Sequence record: MK524176.1
Length of the DNA stretch: 64,000 nucleotides
From: Escherichia phage PHB11
Reading direction: 5' to 3' (one strand)
The position numbers and the translations under genes were made by a program. Under the pieces are notes generated by a model. It worked only from the letters and a program-made list of their open reading frames with translations, ran no database searches and was not told where the DNA came from. Below, piece after piece: positions 8,866-10,488 of this stretch (its first letter is position 1; every line of letters begins with the position of its first letter).

Positions 8866-8895
8866 TTGACAGACTCTACAAAGTTGCTCTAAAGT
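8866..8895 (+). promoter_or_regulatory. Sigma70-like promoter (TTGACA-18-TAAAGT) embedded in an 8-bp inverted repeat
   Basis: A-rich upstream TTTTAAAAGGTG; arms GACAGACT (8868-8875) and AGTCTGTC (8893-8900). Confidence 0.5.
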
Positions 8896-8934
8896 CTGTC
8901 ACATCAAACAACAAATGAGAGAAGAGAGTAAAAT

Positions 8935-10350
8935 ATGAGCGAATTATTTAAACATGCGCACCTTCATGCAGGTCGAACTGAAAATGGTGCTGTAAACCAT
9001 ACTTCATCAATGTCTGCTCTTGTGGACTTTTACAAAGCTGCTGGCTCAAGCCGTAGCAATGTAGAAATCTTACCAGACCTGTTCTACAAAGCTTTGCGTG
9101 AGGATGTTGATGTTGCAGTTCGTATTTTACTGCATATGCGAGATGTACGAGAAGGTATGGGTGAGCGTAAAGCTTTCCGAACTGTTTTACTTCAAGCGAT
9201 TGAAGATAAAGTTTTAGAGCCTACACAGGTTCTTCGCATTATGGATAAGATTGCAGAACTCGGTCGTTTTGATGACTTCAAAATCTTCGTAGGTACTCGT
9301 TTTGAGACAGATGCCTTCAAACATTTAGAAGCAGCATTACTAGACCCTGCAACAGCAGGTTTAGCAGCTAAGTGGTTGCCACGAGTAAAACCACGCCATA
9401 AACAGTTTGTAAAACGTTTCTGTAAGTTTGCAAACTTAAGCGAGAAGGAGTATCGCACACTGTTATCTGCACTGTCTGATACGGTTGAGCAAAAAATCTC
9501 TGCTAATGAGTTTGGTAAGATTGACTACAGCAAGATTCCTTCACTCACTGCTGCACGTTACCAAAAACTCTTTAACCGTAAAGATGGGGAACGTTACAAA
9601 GCTTACATCGAGTCACTCTCAAAAGGTGAGGCTAAGATTAACGCTGGTGCTGTTTACCCATACGATGTGATTAAATCTATCAAGTATGGTAATGCAGATG
9701 TGGCTAATGAGCAGTGGAAAGCACTACCAAACTGGATGGCAGAAGGTGAGAACATCTTGTGTATGACTGATGTTTCAAGCTCAATGTCTTGGGTGAATCT
9801 TGGTTCAATCACTGCCCTTGATATTGGTGTATCCCTTGCTTTGTATGTAGCAGAACGCAACACAGGTTGCTTTAAGAATGAGTTAATGGTTTATTCAACA
9901 AACCCTCACTTCATCGAACTGAGTGGTGATTTACGAAACCGTCATCGTCAGGTGATGCGTCATGTTGAATATGGCTCAACTAACTTACAAGCAGCTTTTG
10001 ACCGCATTCTTGAGGTAGGTAAGCGAAACAACTTGACTCAGAAAGATATGCCAAGTAAGCTTATCATCTTCTCTGATATGGAGTTTAATCAGGTTGATGG
10101 TGCAAATGGTCGTACAAACTTTGAAGCAATTCAGAGTAAGTACAAAAAAGCTGGGTACGAAATGCCACAACTAGTATTCTGGTACTTAGCAAACCGTAAT
10201 GGTACTTGCGAAGTATCTGTTAAGGATAATGGTGTAGCAATGGTATCAGGGTTCTCTCCAGCCACTTTAAAAGCTCTGCTTGGTGGTGAGAAGTTTGACC
10301 CAATCAGCGTAATGCTCAAAGCAGTAATGATTGACCGTTACATCTGGTAA
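8935..10350 (+). CDS. vWA (MIDAS) domain protein, possible TROVE/Ro60-like N-terminus
   Basis: 471-aa ORF; C-terminal region has a MIDAS-like DVSSSM motif with downstream T and D residues; N-terminal approx 270 aa helical; TROVE assignment unverified. Confidence 0.6.
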   Translation: MSELFKHAHLHAGRTENGAVNHTSSMSALVDFYKAAGSSRSNVEILPDLFYKALREDVDVAVRILLHMRDVREGMGERKAFRTVLLQAIEDKVLEPTQVLRIMDKIAELGRFDDFKIFVGTRFETDAFKHLEAALLDPATAGLAAKWLPRVKPRHKQFVKRFCKFANLSEKEYRTLLSALSDTVEQKISANEFGKIDYSKIPSLTAARYQKLFNRKDGERYKAYIESLSKGEAKINAGAVYPYDVIKSIKYGNADVANEQWKALPNWMAEGENILCMTDVSSSMSWVNLGSITALDIGVSLALYVAERNTGCFKNELMVYSTNPHFIELSGDLRNRHRQVMRHVEYGSTNLQAAFDRILEVGKRNNLTQKDMPSKLIIFSDMEFNQVDGANGRTNFEAIQSKYKKAGYEMPQLVFWYLANRNGTCEVSVKDNGVAMVSGFSPATLKALLGGEKFDPISVMLKAVMIDRYIW

Positions 10351-10367
10351 AAAGTTTTAAAAGGGTA

Positions 10368-10396
10368 TTGACAATGTGTTTGATACCCTTTAATAT
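10368..10396 (+). promoter_or_regulatory. Sigma70-like promoter (TTGACA-17-TAATAT)
   Basis: A-rich upstream; 6-bp inverted repeat GGGTAT/ATACCC brackets the -35 box and spacer. Confidence 0.55.
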
Positions 10397-10458
10397 GTTC
10401 TACATAGAAACGAAATGAGAGCTTTTCTAAGATACTGAAAAATATTTTAAAAAAGTTC

Positions 10459-10488
10459 TTGACAACCACTAAAAAATAATGTTAAAGT
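10459..10488 (+). promoter_or_regulatory. Sigma70-like promoter (TTGACA-18-TAAAGT)
   Basis: Inverted repeat ACCACT/AGTGGT brackets the spacer; lies just upstream of the first tRNA. Confidence 0.5.

Follow-up and report, generated by a model that had tools for sequence, protein, structure and literature searches.

Hairpins overlapping sigma-70-type promoters between co-directional genes of Escherichia phage PHB11

We analysed a stretch of 64,000 nucleotides (nt) from Escherichia phage PHB11 (sequence record MK524176.1; hereafter the window, with positions counted from its first letter), and found that its sigma-70-type promoters located between co-directional genes coincide with hairpins. When all the intergenic regions of the window were mapped, eight promoters with the exact consensus were located between co-directional genes, at 8866, 10368, 10459, 11891 and 55299 on the plus strand and at 43633, 45402 and 47195 on the minus strand, and every one of them (8/8) overlaps a hairpin. 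Four of these promoters, which we call P1 (8866), P2 (10368), P3 (10459) and P4 (55299), had been described in an initial annotation of this sequence as embedded in inverted repeats of unrelated sequence; the repeats are indeed present at the four sites, and the recurrence of hairpin potential with unrelated arms holds for the eight promoters, beyond the four originally named. The promoter cassettes occupy gaps of 50-160 nt. Our preferred interpretation, to which we assign a probability of about 0.55, is that they are composite promoter/stem-loop cassettes of the promoter-early stem-loop (PeSL) type, in which a hairpin formed in the sense read-through RNA would attenuate read-through or protect the 3' end of the upstream transcript.

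Promoter hairpins and the excess of pairing

P1 to P4 all have an exact TTGACA, a spacer of 17 or 18 nt and a -10 of the form TAnnnT (Table 1). In the window, TTGACA-N16-19-TANNNT has 21 matches versus 5.9 expected, and the upstream motif AAAGNTGTTGACA, with at most one mismatch, has nine versus 0.92, which bears out the common upstream consensus noted in the initial annotation. Long A/T tracts precede P1, P2 and P3, while the upstream region of P4 is coding and less A/T-rich. The P3 tract AAAAATATTTTAAAAAAGTTC is near the E. coli consensus of the upstream (UP) element, and the P1 tract is UP-element-like as well. The features of a sigma-70 promoter with a UP element, namely hexamers 17±1 nt apart and an A/T-rich region from -40 to -60, are present at the sequence level.

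The hairpins, on the other hand, do not occupy a fixed place on these promoters. In P1, nine perfect pairs are followed by one C·A mismatch and two more pairs, the left arm holding the TGACA of the -35 and the right arm the entire -10. The P2 hairpin, which was also picked up by a terminator scan, encloses the -35 and most of the spacer, and its extended stem (AAAGGGTATTGA / TTGATACCCTTT) has 12 pairs, including two G·U, around a loop of 8 nt and is followed by AATATGTT. The P3 hairpin is the weakest of the four (-5.9 kcal/mol); its left arm comes after the -35, with which it shares position 10464, and its right arm covers part of the -10. The left arm of P4 begins past the -35, and the P4 loop takes in all of the -10 but the last base, with which the right arm opens; the hairpin spans the spacer through to the predicted start site. 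Counted from the first base of the -35, the hairpin centre lies at a distance of between 7.5 and 22.5 nt, depending on the promoter, and the sole common feature is a hairpin centred somewhere on the promoter core. The geometry was initially thought to be conserved, with repeats of 6-8 base pairs (bp) bracketing the -35 box and the spacer. Such bracketing describes P2 only and does not fit the arm placement of P1, P3 and P4; the arm positions differ between promoters, and the repeats exceed the proposed length in P1 (12 nt at 92% identity), P2 (nine perfect pairs, 12 with G·U) and P4 (10 pairs), P3 having 7. In addition, the end coordinate first given for the P3 repeat, 10490, is one base short.

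The amount of pairing was compared with several kinds of control. In random 65-nt windows of this sequence, perfect repeats with a loop of at most 25 nt are found in 26% of cases when the arm is required to reach 6 bp, in 7.8% when it must reach 7 bp and in 0.47% when it must reach 9 bp. Taken singly, the 6-bp core of P4 and the 7 bp of P3 are unremarkable, whereas both 9-bp repeats stand out, as does the whole set. When the left and right halves of the promoters were swapped between them, the mean length of the longest Watson-Crick stem was 6.6 for the native halves versus 4.8 for the chimeras (permutation p = 0.0013), and 7.9 versus 6.6 when G·U pairs were allowed (p = 0.0067). Since native halves pair better than chimeric ones, the pairing is not a product of the shared consensus.

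The folding analysis based on dinucleotide shuffles gave a mean z-score of -1.84 for the eight promoters versus -0.56 for 70 coding windows (Mann-Whitney p = 0.0034). No excess structure was observed in the strand-switch promoters at 8332 and 50464, which have no co-directional gene upstream (z-scores of -0.2 and -0.5), nor in the three consensus matches located inside genes. The longest stem with G·U pairs allowed fails to separate promoters from controls, which also reach 7-10. The excess of structure is real relative to the AT-rich composition, and the hairpins are not unusually stable.

Table 1. Positions of the promoters, hairpins and cassettes in the window, with the predicted starts and the neighbouring features of P1 to P4.
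Feature	Position	Strand	Elements	Setting
P1 A/T tract	8845..8865	+	AAAAAATAATTTTAAAAGGTG, UP-element-like	Overlaps stop codon 8851-8853 of gene 8482-8853
P1 core promoter	8866..8895	+	TTGACA 8866-8871, 18-nt spacer, TAAAGT 8890-8895	Predicted start about 8901-8903; would drive gene 8935-10350
P1 hairpin	8867..8901	+	TGACAGACTCTA 8867-8878 / TAAAGTCTGTCA 8890-8901; 12 nt, 92%	
P2	10351..10396	+	A/T tract, -35 10368-10373, 17-nt spacer, -10 TAATAT 10391-10396	Right behind stop codon 10348-10350 of gene 8935-10350; predicted start 10402-10404
P2 hairpin	10360..10391	+	AAAGGGTAT 10360-10368 / ATACCCTTT 10383-10391; 9 perfect pairs	
P3	10437..10488	+	UP tract GAAAAATATTTTAAAAAAGTTC, -35 10459-10464, 18-nt spacer, -10 TAAAGT 10483-10488	Preceded by the short leader of P2; 27 nt upstream of tRNA-Pro (10515); predicted start 10493-10495
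P3 hairpin	10464..10492	+	AACCACT 10464-10470 / AGTGGTT 10486-10492; 7 pairs, 15-nt A/U loop	
P4 core promoter	55299..55327	+	TTGACA 55299-55304, 17-nt spacer, TAGAAT 55322-55327	8 nt past stop codon 55289-55291; predicted start 55333-55335; would drive gene 55364-56221
P4 hairpin	55307..55336	+	AGAGTATCAA 55307-55316 / TTGGTACTCT 55327-55336; 10 pairs, one G·U, loop 10	
11891 cassette	11882..11919	+	-35 11891-11896, -10 TATAGT 11914-11919, arms ATAAAGT 11882-11888 / ACTTTAT 11910-11916	After tRNA-Ile
43633 cassette	43605..43651	-	-35 43628-43633, -10 43605-43610, arms 43640-43646 / 43612-43618	
45402 cassette	45347..45402	-	-35 45397-45402, -10 TATACT 45375-45380, arms GGTGAGTA 45379-45386 / TACTCACC 45347-45354	
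47195 cassette	47167..47195	-	-35 47190-47195, arms AAGGTGCTC 47182-47190 / GAGTACCTT 47167-47175; 9 pairs, one G·U, loop 6; -10 TACCTT within right arm	

Two further overlaps of promoter-like and palindromic sequences were observed. The P1 palindrome yields, on the minus strand at 8873-8902, a mirror promoter-like site (GTGACA-N18-TAGAGT) that faces the upstream gene. At 16150-16212, a canonical terminator (GCCCTG...CAGGGC, then TTTTTT) carries a -35-like TAGACA in its right arm with TATACT 17 nt further on, which makes it another terminator/promoter overlap, located upstream of the small gene that precedes the terminase.

Stems in related genomes

Orthologues of the cassettes were taken from about 28 distinct Ounavirinae contigs (IMG/VR), 14 metagenomic contigs, Mooglevirus Silverhawkium, SP116 and Kolesnikvirus Hena2. 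The P1 hairpin has 9-12 pairs in all relatives, and in the more distant genomes its C·A mismatch is replaced by C-G or U·G, which gives 11-12 pairs with a loop of 8-10 nt. P2 has 12 pairs in every genome, with a variable loop, and the 43633 repeat has 12 perfect pairs in 27 other genomes and one A·C mismatch in the window copy. The clearest covariation is that of P4 in the Mooglevirus/Suspvirus-like group, in which the outer A-T pair becomes G-C, the adjoining T·T mismatch becomes G-C or G·U, and the inner U·G becomes C-G. In one genome, the 45402 promoter carries wholly unrelated 11-bp arms (ACATAGCAAGT/ACTTGCTATGT) at the same location, and in four genomes P3 is re-paired as AACACTA-N5-TAGTGTT, a 7-bp hairpin that shares the left region with the original stem and is seen in the Mooglevirus-like group. 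At the place of P1, the arms in Erwinia phage Hena2 are ACAGATAC/GTATCTGT; the promoter there follows the orthologue of gene 8482-8853 and has the sequence TTGACAGATAC...GGTATCTGT, with a P1-like geometry and different bases in the distal arm. Whether relatives keep the hairpin with different arms was a check proposed together with the initial annotation, and its outcome is positive, since the hairpin is kept and the arms are changed in places (P4, 45402 and Hena2). A metagenome scan returned mostly near-identical Felixounavirus contigs and one new arm variant only.

For the tally of stem changes, each distinct single change was counted once, and only correctly aligned stems were considered. 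In the MAFFT alignment of the P4 orthologues, an arm indel shifts the right arm by one column; the automatic counts obtained for P4 and the divergent copy of 45402 are artefacts and were excluded, and the raw sequences and per-sequence folds were used in their place. Eight of the nine stem transitions turn a Watson-Crick pair into G·U on the sense strand (one-sided binomial 0.02), the ninth being the A·C of the window's own 43633 copy.

Related structures are present in the Ounavirinae early region, just outside the window, where five to six near-identical modules (AAAGTACTTTACA-aGGGGCTTA-N13-TAAGCCCC) have TTTACA ahead of the aGGGGCTTA and a -10 inside the N13, and in which the arms co-vary between genera (CTTA/TAAG versus TTAT/ATAG). 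In SP116, the segment 9839-15440, which corresponds to sequence outside the window, contains seven copies of a leader hairpin, GGGGAGGGAATGACCTTCCCC, located about 10 nt past a TAAATT -10 and about 30 nt ahead of the start codon of small early genes; this hairpin sits within the promoter's own transcript. The idea that the G/C-rich early-region hairpins are solitary repeats of the RNA anti-CRISPR kind was dropped, as they bear no known similarity to type I-E repeats.

Level of action and alternative explanations

The starts of P1 to P4, which were set about 7 nt past the -10 and are predicted rather than mapped, fall at, inside or beyond the right arm. From this geometry, each promoter's own transcript would lack the left arm, and the hairpin would therefore form only in the read-through RNA coming from the upstream gene. 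G·U pairs, on which several stems rely, turn into mismatches in antisense RNA and in DNA: without them, 9 pairs are left of 12 in P2, 6 of 10 in P4 and 7 of 9 in 47195. The start geometry, the reliance on G·U pairs and the bias of the transitions together favour a role of the sense RNA, and argue against a cruciform, an operator or an antisense terminator. These three lines of evidence make the attenuation or processing of read-through transcripts the best supported of the three suggestions in the initial annotation, although the function itself is our inference; the structure-recognising regulator proposed alongside it found no supporting evidence, and arms of 6-12 bp with 8-17 nt between them speak against the suggested cruciform potential.

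The mechanism that we propose is the following. Strong host sigma-70 promoters would fill the tight gaps between co-directional genes, and the upstream unit would end in a stem-loop that, for want of space of its own, is laid over the promoter core, in a position that varies from the -35 to the spacer, the -10, or up to about +1. In P1, hairpin and promoter overlap because the UP tract starts in the upstream gene and the leader with the ribosome-binding site reaches the next ATG, so that the 81-nt gap is full. The hairpin would work as sense RNA, and only in the upstream read-through transcripts, in which it would most likely attenuate the read-through or give the upstream mRNA a protected 3' end, while the promoter would begin a fresh transcript without the left arm and hence with an unstructured leader.

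How such a hairpin might act was considered by comparing the four promoter hairpins with nine canonical terminators of the window. The folding energies are -5.9 to -11.6 kcal/mol versus -11.1 to -16.7 kcal/mol. P2 and P4 could be leaky attenuators, and it is just as possible that the hairpins serve the upstream mRNA as a 3'-end barrier or as a landmark for processing.

A number of observations weigh against the proposed mechanism. The promoter hairpins have loops of 8-17 nt versus 3-6 in the canonical terminators and 3-4 G-C pairs versus 4-6, and the number of U residues in the 8 nt past the stem is 1 in P1, 4 in P2, 1 in P3 and 3 in P4, versus 3-7, so that P1 and P3 would be poor intrinsic terminators. 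The G+C-rich stem with a 3-8-nt loop and the U run that characterise intrinsic terminators are not found in these hairpins, a loop of at most 8 nt occurring in P2 only. The folding energies of the sense and antisense strands indicate no consistent preference for the sense strand, and the raw folding energy of the promoters, -15.1 kcal/mol versus -14.2 kcal/mol for the coding windows, does not differ significantly (p = 0.24). Among the stem changes, eight to nine transversions break pairs, mostly terminal ones; the P1 alignment contains zero double compensatory changes and its pairing is no better than that of column shuffles, and the P3 stem is broken in the Mooglevirus-like group and in one metagenomic contig. 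The arms share bases with the -35, the -10 and the discriminator, and selection on the promoter alone would conserve them; conservation alone proves little for this reason, and the argument rests on the cases with changed arms. Finally, a literature search for transcriptomics or start-site maps of Felix O1 found none, nor any transcript 5' or 3' ends for Felix O1-like phages.

Part of this evidence would also be expected if the pairing had no function, being a product of chance or a by-product of promoter sequence in AT-rich intergenic DNA that is conserved only through the promoter. The A-rich UP tract facing a T-rich region before the -10, and TGACA mirrored as TGTCA, are possible sources of such a constraint, and the frequency of 6-bp and 7-bp repeats in random windows, the unexceptional raw stability, the absence of compensatory double changes in P1, the loss of the P3 stem in one lineage and its disruption in one metagenomic contig all agree with it, as does the region from -45 to +10, which is almost invariant among close relatives. 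However, functionless pairing does not readily account for the chimera permutation, for two perfect 9-bp repeats that each have a chance frequency of 0.47%, or for the compensatory A-T to G-C change of P4, the unrelated arms of 45402 and the different arms of Hena2 at the P1 position; the 8:1 ratio of stem transitions in favour of G·U-compatible ones and the co-varying arms of the early-region modules also speak against it, and we consider this explanation unlikely.

The comparison of Ounavirinae genomes revealed that the 11891, 45402 and 47195 cassettes are conserved islands flanked by homology breakpoints. At 11891, 18/28 left ends lie at -20 to -11 and 20/28 right ends at +30 to +39; at 45402, 13/28 left ends lie at -10 to -1; and at 47195, 13/31 left ends lie at -10 to +9 and 19/31 right ends at +50 to +69. 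Such clustering at the cassette edges is what would be expected if the cassettes were kept mainly as recombination modules, that is, as crossover points for swaps of neighbouring genes, a role that has been put forward for PeSLs, rather than for transcription. Nevertheless, P1 to P4 are not islands, as their flanks are collinear in nearly all genomes (50-56 loci), their mutually unrelated arms would offer little homology for exchange, and breakpoints at the island edges can also arise if crossovers elsewhere are selected against, which together make this account decidedly improbable. As an observation in its own right, in the region of 47192-47707 and its flanks, the gene upstream of the 47195 promoter is an HNH endonuclease according to the SP116 annotation; roughly half of the related genomes carry other sequence in its place, joined precisely at the -35.

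A more ambitious version of our preferred interpretation, which we regard as speculative and quite unlikely, is that selection maintains the cassettes as a general device throughout Ounavirinae, and perhaps in many other lytic phages with compact genomes: the hairpin would form in the nascent RNA at the moment when a read-through polymerase passes over the next promoter, and would stop or release that polymerase and so relieve promoter occlusion, with the islands doubling as crossover points between genera. If true, this would extend PeSL biology past the T4-type phages and give it a defined mechanistic role.

Action at the DNA level, either as a supercoil-driven cruciform that switches the promoter off or as a dyad site for a dimeric regulator such as a Cro/C1-type helix-turn-helix (HTH) protein, is very improbable. 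The centres of the arms are 22-26 bp apart, about two helical turns, an HTH "transcriptional regulator" is annotated in relatives, and the P1 palindrome contains the mirror site mentioned above; but the spacing is explained by the arms adjoining the two promoter hexamers, and the arms are unrelated between promoters, which leaves no common operator (a LexA box or another operator shared by all of them was rejected, since no sequence is common to the arms). The stems also rely on G·U pairs, which are mismatches in DNA, and the Watson-Crick pairs are 6/10 in a row in P4 and 9/12 in P2. Short arms with a long unpaired centre disfavour cruciform extrusion, and the 8-17 unpaired bases between the short arms would make it very unfavourable here. 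The long perfect repeat with a minimal centre that a cruciform promoter has is not found, the perfect arms being of 6-9 bp and the centre of 10-18 nt.

The last explanation, according to which the hairpins would act in antisense RNA, where a minus-strand stem followed by the U-rich complement of the UP tract resembles a terminator that would shield the promoter from converging polymerases, is scarcely credible: the minus-strand stem of P1 has 12 pairs (-17.5 kcal/mol, the sense stem having -15.6 kcal/mol), with CACCUUUUAAAAUUAUUUUUU behind it, and that of P2 has UAAAACUUUUU behind it, but the sense G·U pairs become C·A mismatches in antisense RNA (P2, P4 and 47195 lose pairs), 8/9 stem transitions favour the sense strand, the U tract of P3 begins 10 nt past the stem, and the plus-strand block of 8.5-40 kb has neither downstream minus-strand genes nor strong minus-strand promoters.

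Genome setting and comparison with known systems

The stretch from 8 to 11 kb has 97-98% identity to about 250 genomes of Felix O1-like phages (e.g., Salmonella phages ph2-2 and SP116), and on this sequence identity the window is assigned to Felixounavirus, in the Ounavirinae (a Felix O1-like myovirus). It has four transcription blocks, on the minus strand as far as about 8.25 kb, on the plus strand up to about 40 kb, on the minus strand again to about 50.3 kb and on the plus strand thereafter; 26 tRNA genes lie between 10515 and 16100. In the Felix O1 genome paper, neither a phage RNA polymerase nor any known factor that modifies host promoter specificity is reported; a few promoters of host type are listed there, including "P45", the orthologue of the 11891 promoter of the window, and the mode of transcription regulation is stated to be unknown (PMC3185647). 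The GenBank records carry no annotation over the promoter/hairpin stretches, and an Rfam search of 8000-12500 gave only tRNAs above threshold and no match overlapping the promoters.

Other features of the window were recorded along with the cassettes. The gene at 8935-10350 (471 amino acids), directly upstream of the cluster of 26 tRNA genes, is annotated in relatives as a vWA/DUF2828 "RNA-binding protein", and distant homologues of it (29-41% identity) are found in large contigs of unrelated phages. The 336-nt non-coding stretch 11876-12211, which separates tRNA-Ile from tRNA-Arg downstream of the 11891 promoter, has Rfam matches resembling transfer-messenger RNA that are below threshold (25.8 and 15.2 bits, the gathering score being 47); it may encode a small RNA, or the matches may be an artefact of the adjacent tRNA. 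Both strand-switch regions (8332-8355 and 50464-50487) share a 24-nt double -35 motif, TTGACAANGTACTTGACAAGGTGT; the motif GTACTTGACAAGG has two matches versus 0.22 expected, each followed by ACTTAAAAGGTT, and it is similar to the early-region promoters of relatives (AAAGTACTTTACAaGGGGC), so it may represent a separately regulated promoter class. Upstream of the 43633 promoter, the minus strand carries at 43688-43741 an array of pentamers, (AGGTN) x 10.8, and a similar NNGGT phasing is seen at about 45223-45300. The non-coding region 1-780 contains more than 20 copies of words like CTGTTAAG / CTTGTTAG; Tandem Repeats Finder gives periods of 11 and 22 at 16-105, and the array extends upstream in relatives (SP116 15720-17400). 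This array resembles those of iterons or regulator-binding sites, and the region is possibly an origin or a control region.

With respect to known systems, the hairpins share with canonical intrinsic terminators their place straight after a stop codon in a co-directional array, and P2 has CCC followed by UUUAAUAU; in contrast, P1 and P3 are essentially without a U tract. A cruciform-controlled promoter was reportedly engineered in E. coli by Horwitz and Loeb in 1988, and it is said to carry, as here, an inverted repeat across the promoter core, whose extrusion would remove the promoter; its arms are described as long and perfect around a very short centre, whereas those of the window have 6-12 bp, partly G·U, with 8-17 nt between them. 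The promoters of the virion RNA polymerase of phage N4, which have 5-7-bp stems and 3-nt loops, act as single-stranded DNA activated by SSB (single-stranded DNA-binding protein) and are used by the phage polymerase, are also DNA hairpins associated with promoters in which structure matters over sequence; the promoters of the window, however, have a plain sigma-70 consensus, and Felix O1 has no RNA polymerase gene.

The closest resemblance is to the PeSLs, which have been described in the T4-type phages RB49/phi1, T4/PST and KVP40/nt-1 (Arbiol et al. 2010, PMC2839356; Comeau et al. 2014, PMC4122927). Their promoters are strong and sigma-70-like with an AT-rich upstream region, their stem-loops may sit in the spacer, on one of the two boxes, ahead of the -35 or immediately in front of the start site, the element runs from stop codon to start codon, and G·U pairs occur in the stems; one of these stem-loops has been demonstrated to terminate transcription on par with rrnB T1 (PMC2839356). 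The stems of KVP40/nt-1 have the form A3-4G3-loop-C3T3-4 (PMC4122927).

P1 to P4 share most of these traits. Their promoters are near TTGACA-N17-TATAAT with an AT-rich upstream tract (less A/T-rich in P4), and the stem-loop lies over the -35 and the -10 in P1, over the -35 and the spacer in P2, over the spacer and the -10 in P3, and from the spacer to the start in P4, a variation in arm position like that among the five described PeSL subclasses. The gap from stop to start is filled, with stop codons that precede or overlap P1, P2 and P4; both systems have G·U pairs in their stems, and the nt-1 stems, AAAGGG-loop-CCCTTT, resemble P2. PeSLs are located preferentially in variable regions, at indel or replacement boundaries; this hallmark is displayed here by 11891, 45402 and 47195 and not by P1 to P4. 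The G-run/C-run PeSLs of RB49 are a close match to the Ounavirinae early-region modules outside the window, which also display the repeated-motif feature of PeSLs.

There are also differences. The host genome is here an Ounavirinae myovirus instead of a T4-type phage, and the arms of P1 to P4 are mutually unrelated and not of the G-run/C-run kind, the GGGG.../...CCCC form being present only in the early region. The conservation of about 100 bp among PeSL copies is absent from P1 to P4, which share the promoter consensus alone, with unrelated arms and leaders, and which are located in collinear, not hyperplastic, regions. Termination by a PeSL was shown experimentally, whereas termination or attenuation in the present case is read from the geometry of hairpins with weak U tails. 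Among the papers searched, none connects PeSLs to phages of the Felix O1 type.

Felix O1-like phages are widely used in typing and biocontrol of Salmonella and E. coli, while their transcription programme is essentially unmapped, and a PeSL-like reading of the cassettes gives concrete predictions of transcript boundaries. It would also explain the invariant short islands found amid swapped neighbouring genes and suggests that the promoter/stem-loop design arose or spread outside the T4-type phages. For phage engineering, the cassettes would mark natural insulated expression units and likely recombination junctions. The layout of the PeSL type is already known from T4-type phages, and the case of the Felix O1-like phages, as judged from sequence, appears to be a modest extension of it.

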